64,000 nt of DNA, from positions 9,258-73,257 of the forward strand of contig CAYGGK010000002.1 in the NCBI GenBank assembly GCA_964349555.1, written 5' to 3'. The position numbers and the translations under genes are program-made. Source of the stretch: an uncultured Candidatus Saccharibacteria bacterium. Its GTDB lineage: Bacteria; Patescibacteriota; Minisyncoccia; Phycocordibacterales; Phycocordibacteraceae. The notes beneath the pieces are model-generated. The model did not search any database. It was not told the DNA's origin and saw nothing but the letters and a program-made list of their open reading frames with translations. Shown here one piece after another: positions 646-50,712 of the stretch (positions within the stretch are counted from its first letter, which is position 1; every line of letters starts with the position of its first letter).

Positions 646-754
646 TTTTGCATACGTTATACGACAAGTATATGTCTTATACGCTACAGTGCAAGCCCTC
701 TATCAACGAGCTGTTTACTCTTTCTCCGCCACGCAGTGCTACAATACGCATATC

Positions 755-2992
755 ATGAGTCGTAAAAATGACAATGGTGCCAAGCGCTCTCGGACGCGAG
801 AGAAGACGGTCAGAGAGTACGGTACGCTTATTCGTTATGCCTCTACTATCGTGCTGTTGGCCGTCGGCGTGCTCCTTACGCTTGCCCTCTTCGGCGCGGC
901 CGGCCCGGTGGGTACGGCGGTCTTCGCCGCAAGTTATTCAATAGTTGGTATCGGCGCTTTTCTTCTCCCGGTGGCTTTAATTGTGGGGGGGCTTTATGCG
1001 GGATTCGGTCGCCCGACTCTCGCCCCTCTCACTACCTCGGGCGTTATCATCATTACCGCTTCAGTGCTTGCCTTCGCGGGACTCTTCCCCGACGCGGACT
1101 TCGGCGGGAAGACCGGGACCTTACTCGGTGAAGTGCTTGCCGGATTTTTTGGCTTCTGGGGAGCGTTGGTGCTTCTCATAGCGATTATCGCAGTCGGCAT
1201 CGTCATCCTGAGCGACATGGAGATGCTCTGGGCGCTTGTAAGTGAAAATGTTTCTTCTCTTTGGGAGCGGCTCCGCTCACGCAGTAAAGACGACGAAGAA
1301 CTCCCCGAGGAATTCACGGACGTCGTCGGCGTACCAGAGAACAACGACAGCCCTTACGCGCCTGAGGAGGTGCCAGAATCTTCTCAAACACAGGAGAGCG
1401 ATCCTGCGGTGACTGTTTTCTCCGCCAGAGGCGGACCCTCCTCTGGCGAAAATCGTTCCGGCATCGCGAACTTTGATGCCGAGTATGAGGCTCCTCCCCT
1501 CTCCATTCTCGGCGCGGACCGCGGACGCCCTGGTGTCGGGGACATAAAAGCGAATGCGAACATCATCAAACGCACCTTTCAGAACTTCGGCATTAATTTG
1601 GAGATGGACGAAGTCTCCGTCGGCCCGACCGTCACCCGATACGCGGTGAAGCCTGCTGAGGGCGTGCGCCTCTCAAAAATCGTTTCCCTCGCAAATAATC
1701 TTGAGCTCGCGCTCGCCGCGCATCCGGTGCGCATCGAGGCTCCTATCCCGGGGAAATCGCTCGTCGGCATTGAAGTGCCGAATACGGTGAAAGCGATGGT
1801 TGGTCTCGGCGGAATCCTGAGCGCCTCTGAGTGGTCTGACAGTACGAAACCTCTTCTCGCCGCGCTTGGGCGCGATATCACTGGCACACCGCACTACGTC
1901 AACGTCGCGAAGATGCCACACGCGCTCGTCGCGGGCGCAACCGGCTCCGGCAAAAGTGTCGCTATGCACGCGATTATCACTTCCCTGCTCTACCGAAACG
2001 GCCCCAACCAACTACGCTTTATCATGATTGATCCGAAGCGTGTGGAACTTACCGCGTATAACGGCATTCCGCACCTTCTCACCCCTGTCATCACCGACCC
2101 AAAGAAAGCTATCTATGCGCTTAAGTGGGCGGGTAAGGAGATGGAGCGCCGCTACAACATTCTAGAGACGGAGCGCGTACGCGATATTGATTCATACCAC
2201 TCAACTGTCTTTGAGAGAGCGAAGACAAAACAGGCGTCGGAGATGCCAGAGGCGCTTCCCTTCATCGTTATCGTTATAGACGAGCTCGCCGATATCATGC
2301 ACAGCTACCCGCGAGAACTTGAATCCTCTATTGTCCGCCTCGCACAGATGTCGCGTGCGACCGGTATCCACCTCATACTCTCCACTCAGCGTCCGTCGGT
2401 GAACGTCATCACCGGCCTTATCAAGGCAAACGTGCCGACACGCATGGCGCTCCAGGTCGCCTCCCAGATAGACTCGCGCACAATCCTCGACGGCTCCGGT
2501 GCCGAGACGCTACTCGGCGCCGGCGATATGCTCTATCTTTCAAGCGATATGCAGAAGCCTGTGCGTATTCAAACCGCCTTCATCAGCGAGAGCGAAGTAA
2601 AAAAGGTGGTGAGCTACATCCGTGCCCATAATGCGGGAGATCTTTCCAGCATAGACTTCGGCCTGTCCGGCCAGGGCGGTAATGGAGACTCGTCAGCTGA
2701 CGGCGGCGGTTTCGTAAACGGTGGCTTTGATGACGACGAAGAGATTGATGATGCGCTCTACGAGGACGCGCGTGCGGCGGTAGAAGCCGTCGGCCGCGCC
2801 TCAACCTCCTACCTCCAGCGCAAATTGAAAATCGGTTATTCGCGAGCGGCGCGGCTTATGGATGTGCTTGAAACAAAGGGCATTATCGGTCCCGCCGACG
2901 GATCAAAGCCGCGCGAGGTGCTTACCTCGCGAAATGCCGCAACCCAAAGCAGAACGACAGACATTGACGGAGATGAGGGTGATATTTCTTAA
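755..2992 (+). CDS. ftsK: DNA translocase FtsK/SpoIIIE (N-terminal TM helices, linker, C-terminal motor with Walker A GATGSGKS and gamma wHTH)
   Basis: ORF 689..2992; likely start at MSRKNDN (755); motifs VAGATGSGKSV, IVIDELADIM, SYLQRKLKIGYSRAARLMD (gamma domain). Confidence 0.9.
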   Translation: MSRKNDNGAKRSRTREKTVREYGTLIRYASTIVLLAVGVLLTLALFGAAGPVGTAVFAASYSIVGIGAFLLPVALIVGGLYAGFGRPTLAPLTTSGVIIITASVLAFAGLFPDADFGGKTGTLLGEVLAGFFGFWGALVLLIAIIAVGIVILSDMEMLWALVSENVSSLWERLRSRSKDDEELPEEFTDVVGVPENNDSPYAPEEVPESSQTQESDPAVTVFSARGGPSSGENRSGIANFDAEYEAPPLSILGADRGRPGVGDIKANANIIKRTFQNFGINLEMDEVSVGPTVTRYAVKPAEGVRLSKIVSLANNLELALAAHPVRIEAPIPGKSLVGIEVPNTVKAMVGLGGILSASEWSDSTKPLLAALGRDITGTPHYVNVAKMPHALVAGATGSGKSVAMHAIITSLLYRNGPNQLRFIMIDPKRVELTAYNGIPHLLTPVITDPKKAIYALKWAGKEMERRYNILETERVRDIDSYHSTVFERAKTKQASEMPEALPFIVIVIDELADIMHSYPRELESSIVRLAQMSRATGIHLILSTQRPSVNVITGLIKANVPTRMALQVASQIDSRTILDGSGAETLLGAGDMLYLSSDMQKPVRIQTAFISESEVKKVVSYIRAHNAGDLSSIDFGLSGQGGNGDSSADGGGFVNGGFDDDEEIDDALYEDARAAVEAVGRASTSYLQRKLKIGYSRAARLMDVLETKGIIGPADGSKPREVLTSRNAATQSRTTDIDGDEGDIS

Positions 2993-2998
2993 AGGGCG

Positions 2999-3352
2999 AT
3001 GACTCGGTATCTTATCGGCGCGGCGCTCTTTGTTCTTATTGGCTACGGCCTTATAGAAGCGTGGCCGCTTATCAAAGGCCCTTCTCTCTCTATTACCTCT
3101 CCAGCAGACAACGGTTCTTTCCCAGACGGGACGGTACGGATAGAGGGGAGGGTTAAGAGGGCCGCAACAATCACTCTAAACGGTGTTCCGCTTCTTCACG
3201 ACCAGAACGGAAACTTCTCGTCAACGCTTACATTCCCACGCGGAGGATCTATACTTACCCTTACGGTCACCGACCGCTTCGGTAGGACGGTGACCGAGAC
3301 CCGCTCCATCTTCGTCCCGTTTGAGAGCGACCAGCCGCACACTAATAACTAA
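2999..3352 (+). CDS. small secreted/membrane-anchored hypothetical protein (N-terminal TM helix)
   Basis: ORF; hydrophobic N-terminus [19 protein letters not shown]; no recognisable family. Confidence 0.35.
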
Positions 3353-6345: not shown

Positions 6346-6798
6346 TTAGAATGGGATGTCCTCGGGATTAATCTCCTCGTCTGGATACTTAATCGACTCG
6401 TCATCCCTTCCGCCGGAGGCGGACCCGCCTTCGGCGGGCGGTTCCCCAACTCCTTGTCCGCCCCTCCCGCCATCGGCACCGAATTGGAAATTGTCCACGA
6501 CAATCTCGGTACGGTAATTTTTCTTTCCGCTCTCCTTATCGTCCCACGAGCGCGTCTGGATGCGCCCTTCAACAAAGATCCCGCGACCTTTTTTCATATA
6601 CTGCGCGATAACCTCGGCTGTCTTGCCGAATGCAACAATATTGTGGAACTCGGTCGCCTCTTGTTTTGCACCACTCTTATCCTTATAGGTACGGTTTGTC
6701 GCGATGCCGAAATTCGCGACACTGCCGCCAGACGGGAGCGCCTTCAGCTCCGGATCGCGGGTAAGGTTGCCATAGAGTAATACTTTGTTGAGGTACAT
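6346..6798 (-). CDS. ssb: single-stranded DNA-binding protein with Gly-rich acidic tail (tail carries an inserted palindromic element)
   Basis: MYLNKVLLYGNLTRDPELKALPSGGSVANFGIATNRTYKDKSG... OB fold; C-terminal DEEINPEDIPF tip; rpsF-ssb-rpsR synteny. Confidence 0.9.
   Translation of the reverse strand: MYLNKVLLYGNLTRDPELKALPSGGSVANFGIATNRTYKDKSGAKQEATEFHNIVAFGKTAEVIAQYMKKGRGIFVEGRIQTRSWDDKESGKKNYRTEIVVDNFQFGADGGRGGQGVGEPPAEGGSASGGRDDESIKYPDEEINPEDIPF
6410..6437. repeat. family-1 palindromic element inserted in-frame in the ssb tail (encodes PAEGGSASGGRD)
   Basis: CCGCCGGAGGCGG-AC-CCGCCTTCGGCGG; one arm mismatch. Confidence 0.85.
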
Positions 6799-7349: not shown

Positions 7350-8168
7350 TCAGGGTAACCCATTCGACAAGCTCAGGGTAAATAGGCGCTCCGCGTTCTT
7401 ACAGAGAGTGGCGCGGACGGTTTCGAGGTCGTCGCCTCTTATTTCTGCGATTTTTGCGACGACTTCTACGACGGCGAGAGGGTCGTTCCGAGACCCGCGG
7501 CGACTCGCGGGCGCAACATAGGGTGCATCGGTTTCAGAGAGAATACTCTCGAGCGGTAGAGCCCTTATGACGTCGTCATAGTCGCGCGCGAAGGTGATCA
7601 CTGCGGTAAATGAAAGAGTGAAGTCAAGCGCGATAAGCGCCTGCGCTTCTTCTAGGCCGCCAACAAAGAAGTGTATATCGCCGCGCAACTTGGGAAACTT
7701 GATTTTCGCTTCTTTCAAAATCTCTATCAAATCATGGTATGCATCTTGAGTACCTTTACTCGGGCGAGAATGAATAATGAGCGGTTTATCAAACTCAGCG
7801 GCAAGAATAACTTGGTCATTGAGTATCGCCTCTTGCTTTTGTTTTACCTCGTCATTTATCTGAGCCGGGCGGTAGTAATCGAGCCCGCATTCCCCTATCG
7901 CGACAACCTTCGGGCTCTTTGCTAGTTCTCGGTATTTATCTACTTCATACCACTCATTACTCTCTCTATTGGGATGGAGCCCGACAGAAGCGAAGAGGTG
8001 CTCGTGTTTTTCAGCGAGCGCCACCGCTTTTCTTGAAGACTCCAGGTCAACGCCGACGACAATGCCTGCAACACTCTCTCTACTCATCCGCTCTATGAGC
8101 TCTGCATCATCGGTTTCGTATTGTTCAAACTGTATGTGGCAGTGCGCGTCCACATATTTTATGTTCAT
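7350..8168 (-). CDS. tatD: TatD-family metal-dependent DNase/hydrolase
   Basis: MNIKYVDAHCHIQFEQYE... HxH motif, TIM-barrel amidohydrolase signature; start ATG overlaps metG stop (ATGA). Confidence 0.85.
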   Translation of the reverse strand: MNIKYVDAHCHIQFEQYETDDAELIERMSRESVAGIVVGVDLESSRKAVALAEKHEHLFASVGLHPNRESNEWYEVDKYRELAKSPKVVAIGECGLDYYRPAQINDEVKQKQEAILNDQVILAAEFDKPLIIHSRPSKGTQDAYHDLIEILKEAKIKFPKLRGDIHFFVGGLEEAQALIALDFTLSFTAVITFARDYDDVIRALPLESILSETDAPYVAPASRRGSRNDPLAVVEVVAKIAEIRGDDLETVRATLCKNAERLFTLSLSNGLP

Positions 8169-9610
8169 AATCCTGCCTGCGCAGGCAGGCGCGGGAATAG
8201 GTTGTCCGGCTTTTTGTTTTCAAATACCGCCCTTTTTACCGCCTCGCACGTCGCCGGCATAAATGGGCTGAGGAGTATGGCTATCTGATAGAGCTCGGTA
8301 GCGAGCTCTCTGATGATAATACGTCCTTTTTCTACGTCCTCTTTTACAAGCTTGAAAGGTTCTTCGTGTGTAATGCGTTCATCGAGTCTTTGTATACGAC
8401 TCCAAACAAGATCCATCGCACGATTGAATTCAAACGCATCTATCATGTCCAAGTATTCTCGCGGAAACACGGGCTCTCCCGAGAGGATAACGGGATCTTC
8501 AAGATGAGTTTCGGCGAGCTTCATCACGCGCGCGACAAGGTTACCGAGGCCGTTCGTCAGATTTGCCGTGTACCACTCATCAAGGCGTTCCCAAGTGACG
8601 TCCGAGTCTTCCACCGGGTGGACGTGGCGCAGGAGTATATACCGTGTCGCGTCAGTGCCATATTTCTTCACGAGTTCGTAGGGACTGATAACATTGCCCA
8701 AAGACTTGCTCATCTTCTGCCCGCCACTCGTTATGAATCCGTGGTAAAAGACCGTGTCGGTTGTCTTACTGTCTGCCGACATCAGCATCGCTTGCCACAT
8801 AAGCGACTGAAATCGTACTTGGTCCTTTCCTGCTACCTGAAGCGTTGTTCCCTCTTCCCAAAACTTCTTGAAATCTCCTTGCTCGTCTTCGGGCCAACCG
8901 AGCGTGGAAATATAATTAGTGAGCGCATCAAACCAGACATACATCACCTGCGAATCATCATTCGGGACCGGAATGCCCCATGAGAGCCGTTTTTTCTCGC
9001 GCGAGATGCTGAAATCTTCAAGCCCACCTTTCACAAAGGCAATCGCCTCTTCTTTCCGCCATTCGGGGATGATGACACCGGGACGAGACAGGTATTCGAG
9101 CAGGCGATCATCATATTTCGAGAAGCGGAAGAAATAATTCTCTTCGGTTATCTCCTGAAGTTTCAGATTGGTGTGGGTGGTGCAATGATCGTCCGCTATT
9201 TCTTTCTCGGTTTTGAACGATTCGCATCCTACACAGTACACACCCGTATAGGCTTTCTTGTAGATGTCGCCCGCGATGTCGCACCGCCGCCACATTTCGG
9301 CCGCTGCCGCGTAGTGGCGCCGTTCTGTGGTGCGAATGAAAACATCGTTTGAGAGGTCAAGTGCGGTGCCGAGCTTTCGGAATTCGTCCGCATAGTGATC
9401 GACGTATGCATGCACGTCCTGTCCCGCTTTCTCTGCGGCTTCGTATATTTTCTGGCCGTGCTCGTCGGTACCAATCGAGAAAAAGACATCATTGCCCGCA
9501 AGCCGCCACGCGCGCGCGAGTGCATCTGCCTGAACGAATTCAAGCGCGTGCCCAAGGTGCGGATCCGCGTTCACATACGGGAGCGTCGTGGTGACGTAGC
9601 GCACACTCAT
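8165..9610 (-). CDS. metG: methionyl-tRNA synthetase (class I, no C-terminal tRNA-binding domain)
   Basis: PYVNADPHLGHALEFVQAD (HIGH region), KMSKSLGN, zinc knuckle CVGCESF. Confidence 0.9.
   Translation of the reverse strand: MSVRYVTTTLPYVNADPHLGHALEFVQADALARAWRLAGNDVFFSIGTDEHGQKIYEAAEKAGQDVHAYVDHYADEFRKLGTALDLSNDVFIRTTERRHYAAAAEMWRRCDIAGDIYKKAYTGVYCVGCESFKTEKEIADDHCTTHTNLKLQEITEENYFFRFSKYDDRLLEYLSRPGVIIPEWRKEEAIAFVKGGLEDFSISREKKRLSWGIPVPNDDSQVMYVWFDALTNYISTLGWPEDEQGDFKKFWEEGTTLQVAGKDQVRFQSLMWQAMLMSADSKTTDTVFYHGFITSGGQKMSKSLGNVISPYELVKKYGTDATRYILLRHVHPVEDSDVTWERLDEWYTANLTNGLGNLVARVMKLAETHLEDPVILSGEPVFPREYLDMIDAFEFNRAMDLVWSRIQRLDERITHEEPFKLVKEDVEKGRIIIRELATELYQIAILLSPFMPATCEAVKRAVFENKKPDNLFPRLPAQAGL
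8172..8189. repeat. 18-bp perfect palindrome CCTGCCTGCGCAGGCAGG (family 2) forming the last codons of metG (..LPAQAGL*) next to the tatD start
   Basis: Seen in sequence; identical copy at 62987..63004 in holA. Confidence 0.8.
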
Positions 9611-10720: not shown

Positions 10721-12115
10721 TTATTCAATGGCGGAGCGGATACGGGAGGCGACTTCGGGAATGGAGAGGCGCTCTTGTTCGCCTGAGTCACGGTGGCGGA
10801 GTGTGACGGTATCTTTTCCGCCGGAGGCGGACCCGCCTCCGGCGGGGAGTTCTCCCAACGTTTCAAAGTCTATGGTAATGCAGAAAGGCGTACCGATCTC
10901 GTCTTGGCGGCGGTAGCGTTTGCCGATGTTGCCGTTATCGTCCCATGCGATTGCAGGATGGACTTTCTTGAGCTCGGCGCGCACTTCCCTCGCCTTCGCG
11001 ACCAGCTCGGGCTTATTCTTCAACAAGGGCGAGACCATCGCTTTTATCGGCGCGACCTTAGGCGAGAGCGCGAGATACGTGCGGGTTTCTTCACCCATAG
11101 TGTCTTCGCGATACGCATCAACTAATACGGCGAGAAGCATTCGCCCTACGCCGACTGACGACTCTATCACGTATGGGATAATTCTTTCTTTTGTTTCTTC
11201 ATTAAAATAACTCAAATCCTGTCCGCTCGCTTTTGCGTGATTCGTCAAATCGAAGTCAGTTCTATTATGAGTACCCCAAAGCTCCTTAAAGCCCTGTGGA
11301 AACTTGAAATAAATATCGTGCGCAGCAGAGGCGTAATGGGCGCGTTCGTTCTCTGCATGCTCGTGCCACTGCAGATTCTCCTCGCGTACACCAAGCACAT
11401 CGGTCATAAAATTCCACGCAACGTTCCTCCACGTTTCGTAAGCGACGGTCTGTGTTTCTGAATTGATAAAATACTGCATTTCCATTTGCTCGAGCTCGCG
11501 AACACGAAATATGAAGTCGCGTGGTGCTATTTCATTTCTAAATGCTTTCCCTATCTGCGCGATACCAAACGGCAATGCAGGATGAATTGTATCAATAACA
11601 TTTTTAAAATTCGTAAAAATAGATCCCGCTGTTTCTGGACGCAAATAGGCGACAGAAGAATCGTCCTCAATAGGGCCAACCCACGTCTTCATCATCATAT
11701 TGAACGTGCGTGGTGGTGTAAGTGTTTTTTCACCACAGGTTGGACACGCCGCATCGGTAAGAAGGTTGGTCAATTCAGCGATATTTGTACTGTCAGTTCC
11801 AGCAAGATGGTCGGCACGAAGCCGTGCTCCACAATTCTTACAATCAACAAGAGGGTCGGTAAATCCTGCAACGTGCCCGCTCGCCTCCCACAATTTCGGG
11901 TTCTGAATGATGGCGCCGTCAACACCAAAAATATCGTCTCTCTCTTGCACTATTTTGCGCCACCACAATTGCTTTAGGTTGTTTGCCAATTCGACACCAT
12001 ACGGCCCATAATCCCAAAAGCCTGCTATGCCTCCGTATATTTCACTCGCGGGGAAGACAAACCCGCGGCGCTTGCAAAGCGAGACGATTTTTTCCATCAA
12101 CTGCGAGTCGGCCAT
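10721..12115 (-). CDS. glyQS: glycyl-tRNA synthetase (dimeric class II GlyQS type)
   Basis: MADSQLMEKIVSLCKRRGFVFPASEIYGGIAGFWDYGPYGVELANN... class II motifs; start at internal Met (12115), since the ORF-track extension has no homology and would overlap the upstream gene. Confidence 0.9.
   Translation of the reverse strand: MADSQLMEKIVSLCKRRGFVFPASEIYGGIAGFWDYGPYGVELANNLKQLWWRKIVQERDDIFGVDGAIIQNPKLWEASGHVAGFTDPLVDCKNCGARLRADHLAGTDSTNIAELTNLLTDAACPTCGEKTLTPPRTFNMMMKTWVGPIEDDSSVAYLRPETAGSIFTNFKNVIDTIHPALPFGIAQIGKAFRNEIAPRDFIFRVRELEQMEMQYFINSETQTVAYETWRNVAWNFMTDVLGVREENLQWHEHAENERAHYASAAHDIYFKFPQGFKELWGTHNRTDFDLTNHAKASGQDLSYFNEETKERIIPYVIESSVGVGRMLLAVLVDAYREDTMGEETRTYLALSPKVAPIKAMVSPLLKNKPELVAKAREVRAELKKVHPAIAWDDNGNIGKRYRRQDEIGTPFCITIDFETLGELPAGGGSASGGKDTVTLRHRDSGEQERLSIPEVASRIRSAIE
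10818..10845. repeat. family-1 28-bp palindromic element CCGCCGGAGGCGG-AC-CCGCCTCCGGCGG inserted in-frame in the glyQS C-terminal domain (encodes PAGGGSASGGKD)
   Basis: Perfect 13-bp inverted arms; near-identical copies at 6410, 50082 and 50627. Confidence 0.85.
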
Positions 12116-24358: not shown

Positions 24359-24392
24359 AAACCGCCCCGACAGCTCCGCTGTCGGGGCGGTT
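24359..24392 (-). terminator. strong hairpin terminator downstream of rplK (AAACCGCCCCGACAGC-TCCG-GCTGTCGGGGCGGTTT flanked by A/T runs)
   Basis: 16-bp perfect stem with flanking A- and T-runs (bidirectional potential). Confidence 0.7.
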
Positions 24393-24403
24393 TCTGTATA
24401 AAA

Positions 24404-25704: not shown

Positions 25705-25723
25705 AGTGAAATAGTCAGGTTAA

Positions 25724-25762
25724 CCCAGCACCTAATTTTTGTTGCAAAAATTAGGTGCTGGG
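25724..25762. repeat. long perfect hairpin (18-bp stem CCCAGCACCTAATTTTTG / CAAAAATTAGGTGCTGGG, 3-nt loop) upstream of secE
   Basis: Seen in sequence; intergenic. Confidence 0.6.
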
Positions 25763-25786
25763 TGAAATAAAAAAGCCCTGCGGGCT
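25763..25786 (-). terminator. rho-independent terminator for the SIMPL-domain gene (GCCC-GCA-GGGC + TTTTTTATTT on minus strand)
   Basis: Short GC stem followed by a T-run on the minus strand. Confidence 0.5.
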
Positions 25787-31000: not shown

Positions 31001-32668
31001 TTAAGTAGGAAACTCTACAATAAAAGTCGAGCCCTTGCCCGCGCCCTCGGATTCGGCGCGGATGGTGCCACCATGCGCCTCCACAATCTGCTTCGCGATG
31101 TAGAGGCCGTAGCCGGTGGAGTGGACGTTCACCTTCTGCGACTCCTTACCGTGACCACCCTCGGTGAAGAGCAGTTTCTTATCTTCATCGGTTATGCCGA
31201 CGCCAGTATCTTTTACTTTGAAAACAAAAACATCCTTGTTGAGCGATTTATCCCGAGTCTTTTCGAGGGAAACCGCTACCGAGCCAGTCGGTGTGTAGTT
31301 AATAGAGTTGTCTATCAGGTTGCGTAGCACGTGGTCGCCGATTTGAGCTCTGTCTCCGGTCATCTCATACGACCCCTCATCGGTGGTAAAGGAGAGATTG
31401 AGCCCTTTCTGCTCGGCAGAGGACTTCGCCTTCTCTACCGCCTCTCCCACAAGAGCCTTGAGATCAAAGGTCGCTTTCGTGTAGGTCACGGTCCCCTTCT
31501 TCAAGTTCGCGGCCTTAAGGATATTCTCCACTGCACCAGCGCTCTGGCGTGACTCGGTGAGCGCATGCTCAACAAACGGCTTGAGCGTGTCGGGCAACAC
31601 TCCAAAGTCGCCCTCAGCGAGCGCGGCGAACGCTCCTGCATCCTTGGTCAACGACCCCTTCACCTCATGCCCGATGAAATGTATAAGCGTCTCCTGTCTC
31701 TCGTTGGTCTTCGCGAGCTCCCCCGCGAGTTCTTCAATATGCTCTCGCTGCTCAATCTCCCGTTTGACGCTTCGGACAAGGAACCAGCCGAAAATTATTG
31801 CAGAAAACAGTGTAATCCCAGTTAACACATAACTGACCGGATTTGTTACGAAGAGGAATTCCGCTGCCACTAGGATGACAAGGGAGACAACAAGTGCCTG
31901 GGTTGCAACGAGCTTTATATTAAACGCATGATATCGAGTCGTCGCATACGCAAGAATCCCAACAAAAATTGTCATGGCTGCCATGCCATATTGTGAAAGT
32001 CCGAAATCTGGTATATATCCCTGGTCAACAAGATAGCTCGCTACGACTCCTGTAACTAGAAAAGAGAAGGTAAAAAGTTCCGCGCCAGCAAAAATAACGA
32101 CTCGTGCAGATCGAATTTGGTAATCAGCGACATTCTTTTTGCGAAGCCCTTGGAACGCAGAAACCGCCATTAAGACCATGGCAAGTATGCCGAGACCGTA
32201 ATAATAGTTGGTAAACCAAGTCCCTTCGATTGCGATACAGTCTCTGATGTTATACCCGATGAGATTCGCAGTGGTAGGGGTGAAGATGAGTATGGGAAGA
32301 AATGCCACAGTCCAAACTGTAGCCATCCAAGCTGGCAATGGACGCTCAGTAATAGATACATGCACGAACCAATTTGTGAAAAAGAAAAGTAGCACCGAGA
32401 GCAGTCCGAGTTCTGCCCATGAAGACATGATGAATGTATTGTCTTCAATATAAATCCATTGCAATAAATCAAGCGTTGAATAGATTGAGAAAATAACAGC
32501 AATAACGGCAAGTAAGACACTTGCAAGATCCCTGCGTTTTAACAATACATAGCCACCGAAAAGAAGGGACGCCACGATTGCTGGTATATGGGTGTAATAG
32601 AGCAATCCTTGAGAATCCAAAAAAAACTGGTAGCAGTATTGAAGATTGTTCAAGAGATTGTATTCCAT
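31001..32668 (-). CDS. sensor histidine kinase with a roughly 7-TM N-terminal sensor domain
   Basis: HisKA H-box IHFIGHEVKGSL, HATPase_c N/G boxes (NLIDNSINYT, DTGVGI, GYGLYIAKQIV); no response regulator seen in window. Confidence 0.8.
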   Translation of the reverse strand: MEYNLLNNLQYCYQFFLDSQGLLYYTHIPAIVASLLFGGYVLLKRRDLASVLLAVIAVIFSIYSTLDLLQWIYIEDNTFIMSSWAELGLLSVLLFFFTNWFVHVSITERPLPAWMATVWTVAFLPILIFTPTTANLIGYNIRDCIAIEGTWFTNYYYGLGILAMVLMAVSAFQGLRKKNVADYQIRSARVVIFAGAELFTFSFLVTGVVASYLVDQGYIPDFGLSQYGMAAMTIFVGILAYATTRYHAFNIKLVATQALVVSLVILVAAEFLFVTNPVSYVLTGITLFSAIIFGWFLVRSVKREIEQREHIEELAGELAKTNERQETLIHFIGHEVKGSLTKDAGAFAALAEGDFGVLPDTLKPFVEHALTESRQSAGAVENILKAANLKKGTVTYTKATFDLKALVGEAVEKAKSSAEQKGLNLSFTTDEGSYEMTGDRAQIGDHVLRNLIDNSINYTPTGSVAVSLEKTRDKSLNKDVFVFKVKDTGVGITDEDKKLLFTEGGHGKESQKVNVHSTGYGLYIAKQIVEAHGGTIRAESEGAGKGSTFIVEFPT

Positions 32669-32674
32669 GTGGCT

Positions 32675-33442
32675 CTAGACGAATTGCCGCACCTTTTCTG
32701 GATAATAACACCCGAGCGGGCCATCATCAGTTTCCATAGGTTCAATGGGGACAATAAGCGGTTGTAAACCAAAAACTTCTTTCAGTTTCCGGAATGCCGG
32801 AAGCACTTTGATATTAGTAAAAAATGATTCTCGTTTTTCTGTTGTAAAATTACCGAACAAAATTGCATCTGATATGAACAACCCCAGGTATCGAAGATAC
32901 GGTAATTCGGGCGCAAAAGAATATCCTTTGCGGAACCAATCAGAGAAGTCGTATATTTCAATATTCACGCCTGGCAAACATTCCGAGAAAAGGCGGTGGT
33001 GGAAATCAATAAAATTTTCACCTTTTATGGTCTTGATTTCATTCATCGGCTTTCCTTGATCTTTTTCAAAATCGATAATACGTATCGACTCAGTAATCTT
33101 CTTGTTCCCTAAGAAGTTCTCTCGAAAGAATGTCAGCTCGCCTAAGCAGTGTTTTACATAATTTAAGTGGACAAACTTATCCTTTCTAAATTCATAGAAA
33201 ATAGGTCTGATTGGTAGATTTTTAGAAACATCCAGAAAATAGTTAAGTTCAAGGTTTGGACTTACAAGCGTAGGGGACATTACCGCTCGTGGCTCTAACA
33301 TTAATTCAGGAGGGCATGGGTGCGAAGAGAAGTAAGCATCCACCCTCTTCCTCAATTCCCTATCACCTCGGCGACGCTTAAGTTCTTCCAGCGCTTTCGT
33401 CAATGGTGTATAAAGTTCTGCGATTTCAGAATAGGAGGACAT
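32675..33442 (-). CDS. hypothetical protein (low-GC island; operonic with kinase)
   Basis: ORF only; 6-nt gaps to neighbours; no family recognised. Confidence 0.3.
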   Translation of the reverse strand: MSSYSEIAELYTPLTKALEELKRRRGDRELRKRVDAYFSSHPCPPELMLEPRAVMSPTLVSPNLELNYFLDVSKNLPIRPIFYEFRKDKFVHLNYVKHCLGELTFFRENFLGNKKITESIRIIDFEKDQGKPMNEIKTIKGENFIDFHHRLFSECLPGVNIEIYDFSDWFRKGYSFAPELPYLRYLGLFISDAILFGNFTTEKRESFFTNIKVLPAFRKLKEVFGLQPLIVPIEPMETDDGPLGCYYPEKVRQFV

Positions 33443-33448
33443 GAGACG

Positions 33449-33787
33449 TTATTGATTTGTGGTTATGGGACCATAGCATGTATTTTCTTCGCCTGATTCA
33501 CAATATTGAACTGTACAGCTTGAATCATCCTCCACACAACTCAACTCCGGACACTGGCCTGCCCACCCGTCACAGATAGGTATTGTGTTAGCTCTCTTTG
33601 TAATCTCTGCGTAATATTGTGGCGCATTTTCTCCGTCTCCAATAAAACAGGAATGCTGGGTTGGATCGCATGATACGTTTGCAAAAACGAGATAATCACG
33701 AACAATATAGAATTTATAAAATGCCGCACTCGCCGACACTAGCGACACCAGGACGATAATCCAGATGAGAATCCGAGTCCCCTTCAT
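33449..33787 (-). CDS. small secreted Cys-rich protein (signal peptide plus about 10 Cys)
   Basis: MKGTRILIWIIVLVSLVSASA signal; C-rich mature region; start at internal Met of ORF 33449..33898. Confidence 0.4.
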   Translation of the reverse strand: MKGTRILIWIIVLVSLVSASAAFYKFYIVRDYLVFANVSCDPTQHSCFIGDGENAPQYYAEITKRANTIPICDGWAGQCPELSCVEDDSSCTVQYCESGEENTCYGPITTNQ

Positions 33788-33848
33788 GGTTATTATTTTA
33801 ACACAAAAAAAGAAAATCGGCGGCATGCGTTGTGCGCATTGCCGCCGA

Positions 33849-34382
33849 TCAAGTGAGACCGAACCAGTTGAAGATGAAGCGGAGGCCCTCGACGGCAAGG
33901 GTTACAACACCTGTCCACCAGAGGTTGGCCACCAGAACACTGCCCCAGAAGATTCTCCAGTCCCGAGACGAGAGGCCGTTGTACGCTTCCGCGCCATGCC
34001 GCATGTACACGGTCGTCACGAACGGATCCGTGAAGCAGGACAAGGCGAGGAATGCGAGCCAGTCACCCTTGCGGGTGGCCCATTGGATAAGGCGCGCCAC
34101 GCGCCCTTGCTTCTCTTCCCCATCTCGCACTCCCTTGAGGAGTTCGAGACCGAGCCAGTCTTGCTTAGACCAGTCGTAGAAGAGGAGGTAGAGCCAGCAG
34201 ATGAGAGCTGAGAATACGGTCATGACGAGACCGCCGGAAATTGCCCCCAACCACGCTATGACCGCAGGGTAGAAGGTGTAGTCAAACACAAACTCCTCCG
34301 CCTGCTTGAAGCCATGGCCGACAGCCATGATACCGATTCGCTCTTTCCAGCGAATCGGTTGATTCGCTGATTTGAGCGCCAT
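33849..34382 (-). CDS. polytopic membrane protein (about 4 TM), function unknown
   Basis: ORF with hydrophobic segments; first gene of the putative four-gene minus-strand operon. Confidence 0.35.
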   Translation of the reverse strand: MALKSANQPIRWKERIGIMAVGHGFKQAEEFVFDYTFYPAVIAWLGAISGGLVMTVFSALICWLYLLFYDWSKQDWLGLELLKGVRDGEEKQGRVARLIQWATRKGDWLAFLALSCFTDPFVTTVYMRHGAEAYNGLSSRDWRIFWGSVLVANLWWTGVVTLAVEGLRFIFNWFGLT

Positions 34383-34600
34383 TTGGCATCTCCCTTGTTT
34401 GTTACGTTAATGTTCAGGCATTCGACTCCCGACGCACTGTCGTGCTGTCGAGTACAAATACCGCTACTTATATTAAAGCACGACTATCTAAAATGTACAA
34501 GTGTTTGACAATTTATAGATTTAGTAATACGATTTACTCGTGAGTCGTAATTGTGCTACTCGCCTTGGCCTACGCGCCATGAATGTAGAAAGAGAAAACA

Positions 34601-34987
34601 ATGCTTGCTCAAGTTCTTATAAACGAAGACGGGATAAACGCTCGCGCGATCTCCCAGCAGGTTTCTCTCCCTGAGTTCGACACCCACGTTCTTAAGCGGG
34701 TGTTAAGGGAAGAATCAAACTTGCATGACCCTCGCCCCCTAACCGACGCACAGATCGACGCCGACGTTGATGCCTACCTGGAATTCCTTCGCGAACGAAA
34801 GCTGAACCACGGTGTCAACATCGTGCCCGTGGTCCAGGTCGATCGGGTCTGGCACATTCACATCATTCAGACCGAGCAGTACGCCCAGGTCTGCAACGAC
34901 TACTTCGGCTACTTCCTTCATCATGCATCTTTCATCTGCGGCATGGGCGACGGTAAGAAGATGGTCCCCTGGCATACTCGTCAGTAG
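34601..34987 (+). CDS. hypothetical protein (possible DUF1399/GRDP-like WHxH motif)
   Basis: VDRVWHIHIIQTEQYAQVCNDYFG resembles the conserved core of DUF1399; weak. Confidence 0.3.
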   Translation: MLAQVLINEDGINARAISQQVSLPEFDTHVLKRVLREESNLHDPRPLTDAQIDADVDAYLEFLRERKLNHGVNIVPVVQVDRVWHIHIIQTEQYAQVCNDYFGYFLHHASFICGMGDGKKMVPWHTRQ

Positions 34988-35118
34988 TACCACCATTTGA
35001 GCCGAACCCAGTCCTCAAGCCTGCTTTCCTCTATCTCTAAGGGAAAGCAGGCTTTTGAATTGTCGTGCGAGACAAGGCTGAGTTGCGGAACAGGCAAGAT
35101 GCTCGTACAATTTTCTCA

Positions 35119-36762: not shown

Positions 36763-36775
36763 ATAATCGTACACA

Positions 36776-37462
36776 TCATTCAATCTCCTTGAGCGCTTCC
36801 ATTGTTACGTGGACTAACTCGATCACCTCCTCATCCTTTTTCGGAGAATGCCCCATCCCTTCTATTAAATGAAGCTTAGAATTCGAAAGCATGGTGTTGA
36901 GCGTTTCTGAATTTTCAATTGATACAGCATCATCACTCGTCCCATGCACTATATGAACGGGAATATCGATTTCTCGCAAGAAATTCTTTCCAAGGGTAAT
37001 TGATAGAAGTGGGTCAATATCAGAAAATGGCTTGGACTTCATCTCATTAAAGTTTCCTTCATCAGTTTCCGAAAATCCAATCGCAGGAGCCCACAATATC
37101 AATATATTAATACGTTTATCGTTTGCGGCAAGTAGCATCCCGCCGCCAAAACTTTTACCAATGCCGTATATGTCAGTATACCCCATCTCCAAAAGGGAGG
37201 ACACTGATTCATGTATTCTTTCAACTATTTTAGCGATACACATTTCTCCTAGATCAGTACTAGCGTTCCACACCTTAAGGCACTCAGAGTGAATACCTCC
37301 TTTATTTAACTGATCTTTTAGCATTTCATAGAGTGGTAACTGCTTTTCTGCATTTATGCCTGGAACGAAAAGAACTGCGCGGGTTTTTTTCTGCTTTGGT
37401 TTGGAGCTGGAAATAAATTTTGTATCTTCTAGTTTCATATTTCTAATTTTATCACTTTTCAA
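36776..37462 (-). CDS. alpha/beta hydrolase (dienelactone hydrolase-like)
   Basis: GxSxG nucleophile elbow GIGKSFGG, C-terminal His GMGHSP. Confidence 0.6.
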   Translation of the reverse strand: MKSDKIRNMKLEDTKFISSSKPKQKKTRAVLFVPGINAEKQLPLYEMLKDQLNKGGIHSECLKVWNASTDLGEMCIAKIVERIHESVSSLLEMGYTDIYGIGKSFGGGMLLAANDKRINILILWAPAIGFSETDEGNFNEMKSKPFSDIDPLLSITLGKNFLREIDIPVHIVHGTSDDAVSIENSETLNTMLSNSKLHLIEGMGHSPKKDEEVIELVHVTMEALKEIE

Positions 37463-37500
37463 CGAGCTATCGAGACGCTGTGTTTTCTTTGTTCGGGATG

Positions 37501-42214: not shown

Positions 42215-42257
42215 AACATCAGCCCACTGGAGCGGAAAATCTGCTTCGGTGGGTTTT

Positions 42258-42295
42258 CTGTTAACTTTTGGTGCGCGGTGAGGGACTTGAACCCC
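42258..42295 (-). other. tRNA 3' fragment (T-arm + acceptor 3' strand + CCA: GGGGGTTCAAGTCCCTCACCGCGCACCA); no matching 5' half
   Basis: Revcomp reads as a canonical T-loop/acceptor/CCA, but no D-arm or anticodon arm can be folded upstream; overlaps the 3' end of ORF 42261..42950. Confidence 0.45.
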
Positions 42296-42950: not shown

Positions 42951-43045
42951 ATCTAGTATATCATAGGTATACTCTGTATATGTATATTATATCAGTTCGC
43001 TTATTTAGCAATCCTCGATATTGGTGGTATTGTGGAAAAGTTCTT

Positions 43046-43118
43046 GGGCGATTAGCTCAGTTGGTAGAGCAATGTCCTTACACGACAAAGGTCGCAGGTT
43101 CGAGCCCTGCATCGCCCA
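43046..43118 (+). tRNA. tRNA-Val (anticodon TAC)
   Basis: Manual fold: GGGCGAT acceptor, D-loop AGTTGGTA, anticodon loop CTTACAC, T-loop TTCGAGC. Confidence 0.8.
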
Positions 43119-43181
43119 CACAAGTAGCAGAACGGCTCATATACGCCGTATATGAGCCGTTCTGCTGATATAATTCCCGAG

Positions 43182-43265: not shown

Positions 43266-43300
43266 AATCTTACACGTAAACTCATCCTAACAGAAACTTG

Positions 43301-43395: not shown

Positions 43396-43473
43396 CAACT
43401 CTCAAAGTGGAACAAATTTGACCTTCTTAATAGCCACTATACCGAGCGGCCATTTTAGGGCACACTGTAAGAA

Positions 43474-49644: not shown

Positions 49645-49986
49645 CTAGTGTGCCCCTGTTCCAGGCGGCACCTCCCTATCAGGAGTCAGGAATGCGAATG
49701 ATTCTCCCGCACCGACGGCGAAGAGCATGCCGTTGCTCTCGAGCCCGCGTATGGTGCGTGGCTCGAGATTCGTCACGAATGCAAGTTGCCGACCGACAAG
49801 GGCCTCTGGCTCTGGTACATAGGGAGCGATGCCGGAAATAATCTGGCGTGGACCCGTTGTTTCGTTAAAATCAACCACGAGCCGCAGAAGTTTGTCGGTC
49901 TCGGGAACGCGCTCGGCAGAACGTACCGTTCCGACCTGCACTTCTATCTTAGAAAAATCCTCAATTGATATTCGTGGTTTACTCAT
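49645..49986 (-). CDS. CsaA/Trbp111-like tRNA-binding domain protein
   Basis: FSKIEVQVGTVRSAERVPETDKLLRLVVDF..GIAPYV.. = Myf/tRNA_bind OB domain; 113 aa from internal Met of ORF 49645..50271. Confidence 0.7.
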   Translation of the reverse strand: MSKPRISIEDFSKIEVQVGTVRSAERVPETDKLLRLVVDFNETTGPRQIISGIAPYVPEPEALVGRQLAFVTNLEPRTIRGLESNGMLFAVGAGESFAFLTPDREVPPGTGAH

Positions 49987-50422
49987 GGGCAATACGTGAA
50001 AGGTAACTGGTAAGAATAAGCGCGGCGGCAGAGGCATCGACGGCCTCGCGCCTTTTGGGCGCGCGTGTCTTTCTCTCTTTTCCACCGAAGGCGGACCCGC
50101 CCTCGGCGGTTGCAGGCGCGCGACGCGCCTGCGCACTCGTGAGCCCTTCCCACTCATAGAAGACTGGGACGCCGCACCGAGCCGCGACTTCTTCTCCGAG
50201 CTGTTTTGCCCCTTTCGCGGCAGGGTTTTCCTTTCCCGCATAATCAAGCGAGTTGCCGACCACAAGGGCACGCACGTCCTCTTTCGCTATAATTGCGCAA
50301 ATGTGTTCAACTGCCTTGGGAGTGTTCGGGACGACCAAGTGAGGAAACCCCATCGTGCCCGTCTCATCAGAGAGCGCGAGACCAATCTTCTTGGTGCCGT
50401 AGTCAATGCCAAGATGTCGCAT
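49979..50422 (-). CDS. ruvX: YqgF/RuvX-like Holliday-junction resolvase / pre-16S rRNA nuclease
   Basis: MRHLGIDYGTKKIGLALSDETG.. RNase H-like N-terminus; carries the family-1 insert PATAEGGSAFGGKE. Confidence 0.8.
   Translation of the reverse strand: MRHLGIDYGTKKIGLALSDETGTMGFPHLVVPNTPKAVEHICAIIAKEDVRALVVGNSLDYAGKENPAAKGAKQLGEEVAARCGVPVFYEWEGLTSAQARRAPATAEGGSAFGGKERKTRAPKRREAVDASAAALILTSYLSRIAHE
50082..50109. repeat. family-1 palindromic element (degenerate copy CCACCGAAGGCGG-AC-CCGCCCTCGGCGG) in-frame in ruvX
   Basis: Two arm mismatches relative to a perfect palindrome. Confidence 0.7.
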
Positions 50423-50605: not shown

Positions 50606-50712
50606 TCGCGGAATCTAGAGCTTTGCCCGCCAGAGGCGGGTCCGCCTCTGGCGGAAAAACTAGCGGGCCAAAAGCCCTTGTGGGTTCGAGTCCCACCCCT
50701 TCCGCAGATGAT
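50606..50712 (+). other. tRNA-like element (5' GCGGAAT..., 3' GTGGGTTCGAGTCCCAC-CCCTTCCGCA) disrupted by or containing a family-1 palindrome at 50627..50654
   Basis: Good T-arm and 3' acceptor-like strand, but no canonical D/anticodon arms; the palindrome plus flanking CTAG..CTAG occupies the central region. Confidence 0.4.
50627..50654. repeat. family-1 palindromic element, perfect copy CCGCCAGAGGCGG-GT-CCGCCTCTGGCGG inside the tRNA-like locus
   Basis: 13-bp perfect arms; central dinucleotide GT (reverse orientation relative to plus-strand copies at 6410/10818/50082). Confidence 0.85.

Follow-up and report, generated by a model that had tools for sequence, protein, structure and literature searches.

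In-frame 30-nt twin-hairpin repeats in housekeeping genes of Patescibacteria and Omnitrophota: a probable family of selfish insertion elements

Why should nearly the same short palindrome lie inside several unrelated essential genes of one bacterium? The question is raised by a 64,000-nt stretch of an uncultured Candidatus Saccharibacteria genome, which we analysed at its full length and call the window. The original prediction described four copies of a 28-bp palindrome, at 6410, 10818, 50082 and 50627. Its coordinates and arm mismatches (one at 6410, two at 50082, none in the other two) were right, and Pfam agrees with its naming of ssb, glyQS and ruvX as housekeeping hosts. Its count was one short, as the window holds five copies, the additional one in FtsK. 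A pattern search of the window gave 10 strand-matches against 0 in shuffles, and a scan of the 24 stem positions that allowed mismatches returned the same five sites only, with 0 in 10 Markov shuffles. The copies and their hosts are as follows.

689..2992, + strand: host gene ftsK (Pfam FtsK; start codon uncertain)
1421..1450 (core 1422-1449), - strand: element copy in the FtsK linker, inverted relative to the gene, two stem positions decayed
6346..6798, - strand: host gene ssb, 150 aa (Pfam SSB, E = 1e-38; gene call in L121)
6409..6438, - strand: element copy in SSB, in frame in the predicted disordered C-terminal linker; coding strand CCCGCCGAAGGCGGGTCCGCCTCCGGCGGA, giving PAEGGSASGG
10721..12115, - strand: host gene glyQS, 464 aa, P0001 (Pfam class-II GlyRS; the longer ORF to 12349 is an upstream extension)
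10817..10846, - strand: element copy in GlyRS, anticodon-binding domain, in a predicted loop joining two beta-strands; CCCGCCGGAGGCGGGTCCGCCTCCGGCGGA, giving PAGGGSASGG
49979..50422, - strand: host gene ruvX, 147 aa, P0121 (Pfam RuvX)
50081..50110, - strand: element copy in RuvX, slightly decayed; ACCGCCGAGGGCGGGTCCGCCTTCGGTGGA, giving TAEGGSAFGG
50606..50708, + strand: tRNA-like cloverleaf hosting a perfect copy; acceptor, D and T arms present; fold z = -5.1
50626..50655, + strand: the perfect copy, in the D-loop of the tRNA-like cloverleaf; CCCGCCAGAGGCGGGTCCGCCTCTGGCGGA

The peptides first quoted for these inserts, PAEGGSASGGRD in SSB, PAGGGSASGGKD in GlyRS and ATAEGGSAFGGKE in RuvX, are correct. 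All three copies have their GT centre on the coding strand and share frame and orientation, as had been claimed; the claim does not extend to the FtsK copy, which lies in the opposite orientation and reads SARGGPSSGE on the FtsK coding (+) strand. Because the codon phase is self-complementary, the pattern xAxGGxAxGG is read in either orientation. The fourth copy was said to sit in a tRNA-like locus, and it does, in the D-loop of a cloverleaf directly after a tRNA-Ser (50515-50601). The anticodon arm of this cloverleaf is abnormal, with a 4-bp stem and a 5-nt loop. Neither ARAGORN nor Rfam at the gathering threshold called it, and it had a weak match to tRNA-Sec (17.8 bits). Over the whole window, Rfam returned only eight tRNAs at the gathering threshold and, at a permissive threshold, nothing credible at 50400-50800. 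Outside the window, another copy lies in a tRNA fragment (locus L030). Other non-coding copies also exist, some with TGA in both loops. Two further claims had been made about palindromes in this genome: the second in-frame palindrome family exists, and the ArgRS hairpins were looked for and not recovered.

The element is widespread. A scan of species-representative genomes, in which exact stems were required, found it at at least 120 loci; given that requirement, stem conservation across this sample is by construction. All of the matches listed come from MAGs or SAGs, with no cultured isolate among them, and most are from Patescibacteria. Omnitrophota host status was confirmed from gene content. 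The 'Gammaproteobacteria' label of one locus (L010) proved wrong, and the Planctomycetota, Chloroflexota, Bacteroidota and other hosts among the matches listed are database labels only. Such a repeat had been thought rare outside Rickettsia; this one turns up in many different Patescibacteria lineages and in Omnitrophota. As for a viral vector, 2.9 million IMG/VR contigs contained about 3-4 true copies, the other matches being GC-rich look-alikes, and no copies were found in GenBank phages or PLSDB plasmids. A literature search by sequence strings and by concept found no description of the element, which is apparently undescribed.

Comparison of copies redefined the repeated unit. The conserved sequence is a 30-mer, [Y-CCGCC-nnn-GGCGG-R][T-CCGCC-nnn-GGCGG-A], made of two tandem 15-nt hairpin units, each with a 6-bp stem (Y/T-CCGCC ... 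GGCGG-R/A) and a free 3-nt loop. The closing pair covaries (n = 129): 90 are U:A, 32 are C:G and 4 are other or unpaired. None of 500 shuffles was equally good, and a Fisher test gave P = 2e-22, though this is one base pair only and two subfamilies alone could produce the pattern. The two loop triplets of a copy do not covary with one another, and the inner triplets are mutually complementary in only about 25% of copies. Thermodynamic folding favours one long hairpin for most copies, but in the covariation test the free positions of this long-hairpin model paired no better than those of shuffles. Since the inner triplets are so seldom complementary and the covariation fits two small hairpins, a palindrome with 13-bp arms is not the conserved feature. 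Judged from these alignments, the element is better described as two tandem 15-nt hairpins than as one 28-bp palindrome; the repeat family first recognised stands, and its unit is replaced.

The doublet is close to a rule. Paired units number 264 and solo units 27, and arrays of three or more are absent; three-unit matches in metagenomes turned out to be unrelated (xAxGG)n tandem repeats of GC-rich contigs. The copies form one family with two subtypes, and many have GGATCC at their centre. Element GC is 73%, against a locus median of 46%. The flanks follow the consensus tTtT ... AaAa, T-rich on the 5' side and A-rich on the 3' side, with neither a GTAG nor a CGTC tetranucleotide in the consensus.

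If these are insertions, orthologues should exist as filled and empty versions of the same site, and they do. In RuvX and UvrA (the latter studied in L010), filled and empty orthologues differ by exactly 30 nt (10 codons). RuvX homologue lengths are bimodal at 137 and 147 aa, with an exact junction GAA|30 nt|AAA, and UvrA has the junction TTT|30 nt|AGC; of 120 UvrA homologues, 117 lack the insert. In GlyRS, the DNA of filled and empty sites shows the 30-nt insert accompanied by a 9-nt loss, and about 28 of the closest homologues have no insert. In SSB, an element-like peptide occurs in only one other of 150 representatives, elsewhere in the tail. Empty sites are orthologous sequence without interruption. 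Five filled/empty comparisons revealed no direct repeat, and hence no target-site duplication, at the junctions; a 'GAA' microhomology that we considered as a general duplication is confined to one RuvX junction. The left junctions seen were GAA|, CAC|, GCT|, TTT| and TTG|, so that the T-rich 5' flank has no fixed word. RuvX homologues also form a decay series in which decayed and partly deleted copies are common. These alignments support the view, put forward originally, that the segments are insertions into coding sequence and not conserved protein features, the closest orthologues lacking them.

How do the host genes accommodate the inserts? Among the matches listed, ORFs of at least 100 aa contain about 80% of copies, and 82 of 133 copies lie in long ORFs in a single phase that yields the peptide (F)SAxGGSAxGG(K). 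The three codon phases are occupied by 82, 16 and 8 ORF copies (chi-square P = 5e-21). Loop 2, read on the coding strand, is biased towards Ser when compared with loop 1 in reverse complement (P = 4e-4). An insert of 30 nt, a length divisible by three, leaves the frame downstream of it intact. In the GlyRS model the insert falls in the loop that connects strands 411-415 and 436-441, where residues 428-431 have pLDDT below 50, and the RuvX model places it inside the segment 97-125, again with pLDDT below 50. The inserts are thus predicted to sit in disordered or loop regions, as had been proposed. One dominant phase together with such positions argues that copies are translated and tolerated; from phase and codon bias, the product would be a Gly/Ser-rich flexible loop. 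Other hosts include RpoB, RpoC, DnaE, DnaG, UvrA, UvrB, Mfd and several aminoacyl-tRNA synthetases. The proposed likeness to Rickettsia palindromic elements (RPEs) therefore holds at the level of behaviour: inserts in the translated phase that appear tolerated, with further copies in non-coding DNA and tRNA-like genes.

The original prediction also suggested an active or recently active system, a suggestion that our data do not bear out. The GlyRS and RuvX copies of the window and the UvrA copy of L010 are common to lineages near synonymous saturation, so they are old, and we observed no polymorphic (recent) insertion. Filled alleles of RuvX, UvrA and GlyRS have orientation, subtype and derived flanking residues in common, as would be expected if each site had been filled once, long ago, and then exactly emptied many times, or if alleles had been exchanged, and not if transposition were ongoing. 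Presence in RuvX is patchy, with at least 16 presence/absence state changes across 120 sequences and filled/empty pairs at 90-93% identity. Recent lineage-to-lineage transfer of the filled segment was considered for UvrA and GlyRS and rejected, because the immediate flanks have diverged like the rest of the gene. In orthologous copies the stems are identical at 38 of 40 synonymous sites, compared with 287 of 666 (43%) gene-wide (P = 2e-11); in intact orthologous copies loops and flanks diverge while stems stay the same (24/24 nt in the UvrA stem).

We consider it probable that the copies belong to a family of 30-nt, GC-rich, non-autonomous, selfish insertion elements that are mobilised in trans and behave like RPEs. 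The frozen stems of the old copies are unexpected for a purely selfish, decaying element. A rival explanation is a functional nucleic-acid motif. Under that explanation a DNA or mRNA twin hairpin would be bound by a conserved factor of the host or a symbiont and kept by selection, with spread being secondary; chromosome organisation, replication or repair punctuation, and mRNA stability or pausing are examples of roles it might play. Stem identity at synonymous sites amid near-saturated flanks and free loops, the strict doublet organisation, and the retention of one sequence in both Patescibacteria and Omnitrophota all speak for it. A functional motif should not, however, leave the same site empty in many orthologues, nor should its RuvX copies so often be decayed or partly deleted. 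Its positions, in unrelated genes and loops, follow no positional logic, and it has no known candidate binding factor. The yeast mitochondrial GC42 cluster, which is regarded as selfish, likewise combines conserved stems with variable loops (PMC4478555). We regard the functional motif as unlikely, though it is the most serious competitor of a selfish element.

Less likely again is templated synthesis. Here new copies would not come from transposition of older ones; a reverse transcriptase or a repair polymerase/ligase would write them into breaks at T|A-rich positions, using as template a conserved small hairpin, either RNA or DNA, for example from a tRNA-like gene. This would fit the absence of target-site duplication, the identical sequence in distant lineages, the repeated use of the same orthologous sites, and the presence of the perfect copy in the tRNA-like gene of the window and of another in the L030 tRNA fragment. 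A single template would not, however, yield loop triplets that differ freely among copies of one genome. The tRNA-associated copies resemble ordinary insertions at a TTG|AA site, and no reverse transcriptase-like gene recurs among neighbouring ORFs.

A protein-level explanation, that genes converged repeatedly on a flexible Gly/Ser-rich loop and that palindromy is a by-product of GGC/GCC/TCC/GGA codons, is very improbable. Its model would be the (xAxGG)n repeats of GC-rich organisms: the pentapeptide (S/T/P/A)AxGG, from the codons xCC GCC nnn GGC GGx, is often found tandemly repeated in metagenome contigs of high GC, and most copies of the element are in the one translated phase. Yet copies agree exactly at synonymous sites even when their host genes are unrelated, and they are GC-rich in loci of far lower GC. 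An S-to-P change is tied to a synonymous GGA-to-GGG change that restores the base pair, and the indels at junctions are exactly 30 nt. The synonymous-site identity and the copies in non-coding DNA and tRNA-like genes, including those with a TGA in both loops, effectively refute a protein-level origin. That the repeat is a sequencing, assembly or binning artefact (linker or adapter, chimeric reads) is hardly credible: the exclusive origin of the listed matches in MAGs or SAGs, the frequent central GGATCC and at least one wrong MAG label would suit it, but the same insertion occurs at the same site in independent ENA, JGI, NCBI and Logan assemblies from short reads, long reads and single cells, reading frames are kept, orthologous copies have diverged flanks and loops, decayed copies exist, and the element matches no adapter known to us.

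With a selfish insertion element as the preferred reading, we compared it with known systems. In the summary of Ogata et al. 2000/2002 given in PMC10969869, RPEs are about 100-150 bp long, fall into about ten sequence families and are confined to Rickettsia and relatives. They lie in frame in unrelated, often essential genes and in RNA genes, are translated and tolerated by the fold, and are patchy and decaying; they are not known to have a linked transposase, and their small-genome hosts rely on other cells (PMC10969869). The element resembles RPEs in its in-frame insertion in unrelated ORFs, with an extra peptide suggested here by phase and codon bias, and in its copies in RNA genes, its patchiness among orthologues, its decay, the lack of any linked transposase in our searches and its occurrence in hosts of small genome that live in dependence on other cells. 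It differs in being a single family of 30 nt built from two 15-nt mini-hairpins and in having Patescibacteria and Omnitrophota as hosts. By size and taxa it would fall outside the RPE families.

In anatomy, there is also a likeness to organellar elements. Yeast GC42 (PMC4478555) and the double-hairpin or RHE elements of Allomyces and sponges (PMC2800124) are about 18-50 nt, GC-rich and found in AT-richer genomes. They are sporadic among strains, occur in intergenic, rRNA and occasionally coding sequence, and have stems conserved below the synonymous rate and variable loops; exchange between lineages through flanking homology has been proposed (PMC4478555, PMC2800124). The element is likewise a double hairpin, richer in GC than the genome around it, whose stems are conserved and whose loops vary. 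Unlike these organellar and mostly intergenic clusters, it lies in bacterial chromosomes, mostly in frame within genes, and the sequences are dissimilar. In yeast, GC clusters also have putative target duplications of 2-3 nt (AG or ACT), whereas the element has none.

REPs and REPINs are GC-rich hairpins of 20-40 nt, the REPIN being a mobile doublet that makes no target duplication and is proposed to be moved in trans by a single-copy HUH RAYT (PMC3733652). REPs are extragenic, have GTAG or CGTC at one end, and are lineage-specific and vertically inherited with the RAYT (PMC3733652). In the element, too, the repeated unit is a two-hairpin doublet. Unlike REPs, it is mostly intragenic, has T/A flanks in place of GTAG or CGTC, and is shared across phyla; an approximate-query probe of 1.09 Mb brought up no RAYT. 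The missing duplication also separates it from MITEs. Elements of the IS200/IS605 group have hairpin ends instead of inverted repeats, insert without duplication and excise seamlessly. These elements and their derivatives (PATEs) are at least about 100 nt long, with cleavage sites at set distances from the hairpins, guided by tetranucleotides. The element shares with such miniatures the hairpin ends, the lack of inverted terminal repeats and of duplication, and the seamless empty sites; it differs in being only 30 nt, and defined cleavage tetranucleotides are not evident. PARCELs are coding DNA with dyad symmetry, horizontally distributed among distant microbes; they encode amphipathic units of 25 residues, which repeat in long tandem arrays inside ORFs for dedicated surface proteins. 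The element is also dyad-symmetric coding DNA in distant microbes, but occurs as single inserts in housekeeping genes.

How might so small an element move? An enzyme acting in trans would recognise the two small hairpins in single-stranded DNA, and the same candidate enzyme would both excise and integrate the element seamlessly. The best-fitting known chemistry would be the 'peel-and-paste' reaction of HUH/Y1 enzymes (IS200/IS605 TnpA or RAYT-like). Such a reaction would account for the absent duplication, for gain and loss of exactly 30 nt, for the doublet rule and for covariation at the level of the unit. When 1,510 ORFs lying no more than 2.5 kb from copies were compared all against all, no recurrent family and no recurring reverse transcriptase emerged. 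Probing 1.09 Mb of genome fragments for Y1 TnpA with approximate queries returned one IS200 TnpA, at L071, with an unrelated hairpin sequence. The end hairpins of this IS200-type element have an 8-bp stem and a 2-3-nt loop, and two stand in tandem at one end, which may be read as an architectural analogy to the twin hairpin. Neither the neighbour-ORF comparison nor the Y1 probe found a full-length IS relative of the element.

A bolder version of the selfish-element reading is possible, and we hold it tentatively, as something we would sooner bet against. The element might be the smallest bacterial mobile element yet: a non-coding 30-nt twin hairpin making seamless, reversible, in-frame 10-codon indels through a hairpin-recognising enzyme common to ultra-small, host-dependent bacteria in both Patescibacteria and Omnitrophota. 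Its stems would be held by a sequence-specific constraint. Across all these lineages it would supply essential proteins and RNAs with loop insertions, and it might have a function of its own at the nucleic-acid level. Exact gain and loss without duplication, together with the frozen stems, raise the question of which factor recognises a doublet of 15-nt hairpins with 6-bp stems.

The element accounts for a recurrent 10-residue Gly/Ser-rich insert in RpoB, RpoC, DnaE, aminoacyl-tRNA synthetases, UvrA and other proteins that would otherwise be taken for a lineage-specific protein feature. Its insert sites naturally map the loops at which essential proteins tolerate insertions, and it can serve as a clean marker for phylogeny and for mis-binned contigs. 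If confirmed, the finding would extend selfish palindromes inside essential genes from Rickettsia to the Candidate Phyla Radiation and Omnitrophota, to which a very large part of the uncultivated bacteria belongs, in the form of an element about four times smaller than RPEs and with a sharply defined two-hairpin anatomy.

The pattern CCGCC(R)GAGGCGG-NN-CCGCCT(Y)(Y)GGCGG matched the window at 6410, 10818, 50082 and 50627, all four places named in the original prediction, and at a fifth, 1422. Dinucleotide-preserving shuffles of the window gave zero matches. A decay-tolerant scan, in which the 24 stem positions alone were scored, returned the same five places and no others, with zero matches in ten Markov shuffles. 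By Pfam, the host ORFs are FtsK, SSB, class-II GlyRS and RuvX. Translation confirmed the peptides quoted earlier for the SSB, GlyRS and RuvX copies, and the FtsK copy encodes SARGGPSSGE. The SSB copy lies within the disordered linker ahead of the conserved DIPF tip. All five copies (5/5) are of the C:G subtype, which has a GT centre. One of them sits in a tRNA-like locus:

50627, 26 nt past tRNA-Ser: element copy in the D-loop of a 103-nt tRNA-like cloverleaf

This cloverleaf (50606-50708, directly 3' of tRNA-Ser) has good-looking acceptor, D and T arms and an abnormal anticodon arm (4 bp, 5-nt loop); neither ARAGORN nor Rfam called it. Candidate identities are a pseudo-tRNA, the remnant of an integration site and an unknown tRNA-like RNA. 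At another locus, L030 (7273-7700), the element likewise lies in the D-loop of a tRNA-Ser 5' gene fragment. After the fragment come a GIY-YIG-like ORF (MFTVYVLRSEKNNRLYTGYTEDLEKR...) and, beyond that, an intact tRNA-Ser(cga); the arrangement resembles the insertion of a mobile GIY-YIG gene at a tRNA, accompanied by partial duplication.

A scan of species-representative genomes with CCGCCNRAGGCGGNNCCGCCTYNGGCGG yielded at least 120 loci, giving a working set, window included, of 133 copies (slightly relaxed pattern) or 129 (exact stems, usable flanks). Because the search demanded exact stems, stem invariance in this sample is by design. The pattern also set A at position three of the first triplet and T at position one of the second, leaving free the flanks, the centre and two positions per loop triplet. 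The consensus is tTtT-CCGCC-nnn-GGCGG-AT-CCGCC-nnn-GGCGG-AaAa, that is, a 15-nt unit in tandem duplicate, TCCGCCnnnGGCGGA|TCCGCCnnnGGCGGA, with the unit itself palindromic. Its GC content is 73%; the host loci have a median of 46%.

The element had been described as a 28-bp palindrome, which is the wrong unit. The loop triplets are complementary to one another in just about a quarter of copies, and the base 5' of the first CCGCC has its covarying partner in the first centre base and not in the base 3' of the last GGCGG. This closing pair is T:A in 90 copies, C:G in 32 and unpaired in 4; none of 500 shuffles did as well (Fisher P = 2e-22). It is therefore the 15-nt hairpin unit that is conserved, not the long palindrome. 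At its free positions the long-hairpin model failed to outperform shuffles; ViennaRNA energies favoured the long hairpin for most copies. In the C:G subtype, the TCC-to-CCC change (Ser to Pro) goes with a synonymous GGA-to-GGG change, which points to a constraint at the nucleic-acid level, not the protein level. Across 953 kb, units were paired 264 times and solo 27 times, and no arrays of three or more were found.

Three-unit metagenome matches were rejected as family members. These are ordinary (xAxGG)n coding tandem repeats on contigs of 55-79% GC, with the same "loops" in every unit and no adherence to the closing-pair rule. Metagenome loci L146-L185 have 55-79% GC (38 of 40 at 60% or more), and their repeats encode (S/T/P/A)AxGG pentapeptides through the codons xCC GCC nnn GGC GGx, matching relaxed versions of the pattern. 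Such high-GC repeats form a look-alike background and source of false positives outside the element family. The viral matches L129, L132-L134, L136-L138 and L140 are false positives of the same kind.

All matches listed came from MAGs or single-cell genomes. Approximately 60% of them are labelled Patescibacteria, from many classes, and the remaining labels include Omnitrophota, Planctomycetota, "Gammaproteobacteria", Chloroflexota, the Verrucomicrobiota group and Bacteroidota. The claimed rarity elsewhere thus does not hold, given this number of loci in species-representative genomes from many Patescibacteria classes and Omnitrophota. The "Gammaproteobacteria" label of L010 (CAZHFX010000015.1) is wrong, since its UvrA shares 77-79% identity with proteins of Magasanikbacteria/Patescibacteria. 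The same probably applies to other "TPA_asm uncultured Gammaproteobacteria" loci, and a taxon label from that series needs a marker-gene check before it can be relied on. Gene content indicates that the Omnitrophota loci are genuinely outside Patescibacteria: L087 encodes an outer-membrane alginate-export porin, in L086 pyruvate dehydrogenase E1 adjoins the element-hosting E2, and L092, a single-cell genome contig, carries IlvD, acetolactate synthase and asparagine synthase. In one Omnitrophota MAG, BS750m-G21 (L060, L078, L095), longer imperfect inverted repeats, made of GGTTTCAGGTTACAGGTTTC-like motifs and recurring at several loci, have the 30-mer at their core; there the element may be nested in, or be the seed of, a larger repeat family. 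The element was absent from 72,556 plasmids and 50,697 GenBank phages and very rare in IMG/VR. The window comes from an organism resembling Kaiserbacteria/Paceibacteria.

Comparison of orthologous sites with the element (filled) and without it (empty) supports insertion, as originally proposed, rather than a conserved protein feature; no orthologues with the same peptide and no palindrome were seen. RuvX homologue lengths peak at 137 and 147 aa, and the alignment contrasts ARRAPx|KE... (empty) with ARRAPx-PAEGGSASGG-KE... (filled). The closest filled/empty pair has about 90% protein identity. The filled DNA reads GCA CCA GAA | CCC GCC GAG GGC GGG TCC GCC TCT GGC GGA | AAA GAA and that of the paired empty relative GCG CCA GAA | AAA GAA, a difference of exactly 30 nt with no target duplication seen at the junction. 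For the UvrA of L010, 117 of 120 homologues have the empty state CTGLGTKELF|SEEECP, and two have exactly ten added residues at that point (TTT|AGC empty; TTC|30 nt|AGT and TTT|30 nt|AGC filled). The GlyRS site is less simple. The window protein (P0001, 100% match) and P0030 (76% identity) read TLGEL-PAxGGSASGG-KDTVTLR, about 28 closer homologues, sharing 77-87% identity, have TLGE-x-PE-LKDTVTLR in its place, and in more distant homologues the loop is shorter still; at the DNA level, the filled site gained the 30-mer and lost three neighbouring codons. Compared with those more distant homologues, the "empty" alleles themselves carry an inserted segment, xPEL, and P0017, from another lineage, has an unrelated 20-residue insert (DPGTTPRPVAQEATTGAAATGQGN) in the same loop; this loop is a general indel hot-spot. 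For SSB, just 1 of 150 representative homologues has a similar peptide, elsewhere in the tail. In AlphaFold models, the RuvX insert falls inside the sole low-confidence segment (residues 97-125, pLDDT below 50) and the GlyRS insert in the loop joining strands 411-415 and 436-441.

Long ORFs (at least 100 aa) contain 82 of the 133 copies in a single codon phase, encoding (F)SAxGGSAxGG(K), or PAxGGSAxGG in the C:G subtype. The other two phases account for just 24, several at gene ends, and 27 copies lie outside any long ORF (chi-square against equal phases, P = 5e-21). Since the main phase is self-complementary, both orientations yield the same kind of peptide. The second triplet on the coding strand is Ser-biased (TCN 56, TTN 24), while the reverse complement of the first is not (32 vs 46; P = 4e-4), and copies with TGA in both triplets are non-coding. 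These patterns look like signatures of translation and peptide-level selection. Pfam hosts include UvrA, DnaE, RpoB, RpoC, DnaG, UvrB and Mfd; LeuRS, PheT, an AspRS-type and an IleRS/ValRS-type enzyme; and an E2 acyltransferase, a MurA-like enzyme, a type I restriction R subunit, GspK and an RHS protein. Some 80% of all copies fall inside ORFs. The coding density of such genomes is about equal to or slightly above that share, so there is no evidence of gene targeting; copies persist in genes since an insert of 30 nt, divisible by three, keeps the reading frame.

The window holds other palindromes. A short one, CCTGCCTGCGCAGGCAGG (18 nt, 6 codons), occurs at 8172-8189 and 62987-63004, both in frame on the minus strand and encoding LPAQAG, at the C-terminus of a 481-aa ORF (8165-9610) and in a 269-aa ORF; it recurs in another MAG locus (L029, 7424-7441) and could belong to a second family of palindromes inserted in frame. 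Further strong hairpins, unrelated in sequence to the element, lie at 43126-43166, 25720-25766 and 24359-24393: one, located between tRNA-Val and tRNA-Leu, has perfect arms of 20 nt, another is intergenic with arms of 22 nt, and a third, with 16-nt GC-rich arms between A and T runs, resembles a bidirectional terminator. GC falls to 43-47% at 32000-38000 and 42000-46000, compared with about 53% elsewhere in the window, and these stretches may be acquired regions.

On a distance tree of 120 sequences, at least 16 changes are needed to explain presence and absence at the RuvX site, and every sequenced filled allele has some closer empty relative. Decayed copies (PAEGESDSDK, PAEGVHIFVG) and partly deleted ones are also present. 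Filled alleles at one site have subtype, orientation and derived flanking residues in common (GEL and the 9-nt loss in GlyRS; V-x-G-x-F replacing TKELF in UvrA), yet the immediate flanks of the GlyRS and UvrA alleles have diverged to the same degree as the remainder of the gene. The favoured history is one of single, old insertions and many exact losses since then; the recent activity claimed earlier needs correction. Recurrent site-specific insertion or allele exchange at filled sites is conceivable. In five orthologous filled pairs, 38 of 40 stem third codon positions are identical, against 287 of 666 (43%) comparable synonymous sites elsewhere in those genes (Fisher P = 2e-11), so the stems are held constant in situ; loop nucleotides match at 19 of 30. 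A purely decaying selfish element does not predict such constancy. Yeast mitochondrial GC42 has the same pattern of constant stems (PMC4478555).

Orthologue comparisons show that the 30-nt insertion is exact and empty sites are seamless, with no target duplication at the element junctions compared. The 5' flanks are T-rich and the 3' flanks A-rich, with junctions such as GAA|AAA, CAC|AAA, GCT|AAG, TTT|AGC and TTG|AAA. All-against-all comparison of ORFs near copies revealed no linked gene. The element would be mobilised in trans, through an enzyme able to recognise short hairpins of single-stranded DNA and to join ends seamlessly, as IS200/IS605 TnpA and RAYT (HUH Y1) enzymes do. A rough search of 1.09 Mb with approximate IS200 and IS608 TnpA queries gave one match, at locus L071:

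L071, 3360-3975: complete IS200/IS605-type element encoding a 139-aa Y1 TnpA

It sits just past the 486-aa ORF (1887-3347) that carries the in-frame element copy of L071. Its left end forms the hairpin CCACTGGT-tcg-ACCAGTGG and its right end two tandem hairpins. These hairpins have an 8-bp stem and a loop of 2-3 nt, with a tandem pair at one end, a design similar to that of the element; their sequence is unrelated, and so they provide an architectural precedent, not a cognate enzyme. An HUH mechanism specifically seems rather unlikely.

Among known families, MITEs differ in having a target duplication, and REPs in their extragenic location and GTAG/CGTC tag (PMC3733652). The RPE-like interpretation was right in spirit, in that the element behaves functionally like RPEs; it is not a member, differing in size, taxa and anatomy (PMC10969869). 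Closest in design are mitochondrial GC clusters and double-hairpin elements (PMC4478555, PMC2800124), from which the 30-nt element differs in being bacterial and mostly intragenic. Full-text searches, sequence strings included, found no description of it; most subscription journals lie outside their coverage, so novelty is not thereby proven. The finding is real, with substantially more to it than the original prediction stated, and the element is probably a trans-mobilised, selfish insertion that its hosts tolerate in frame.
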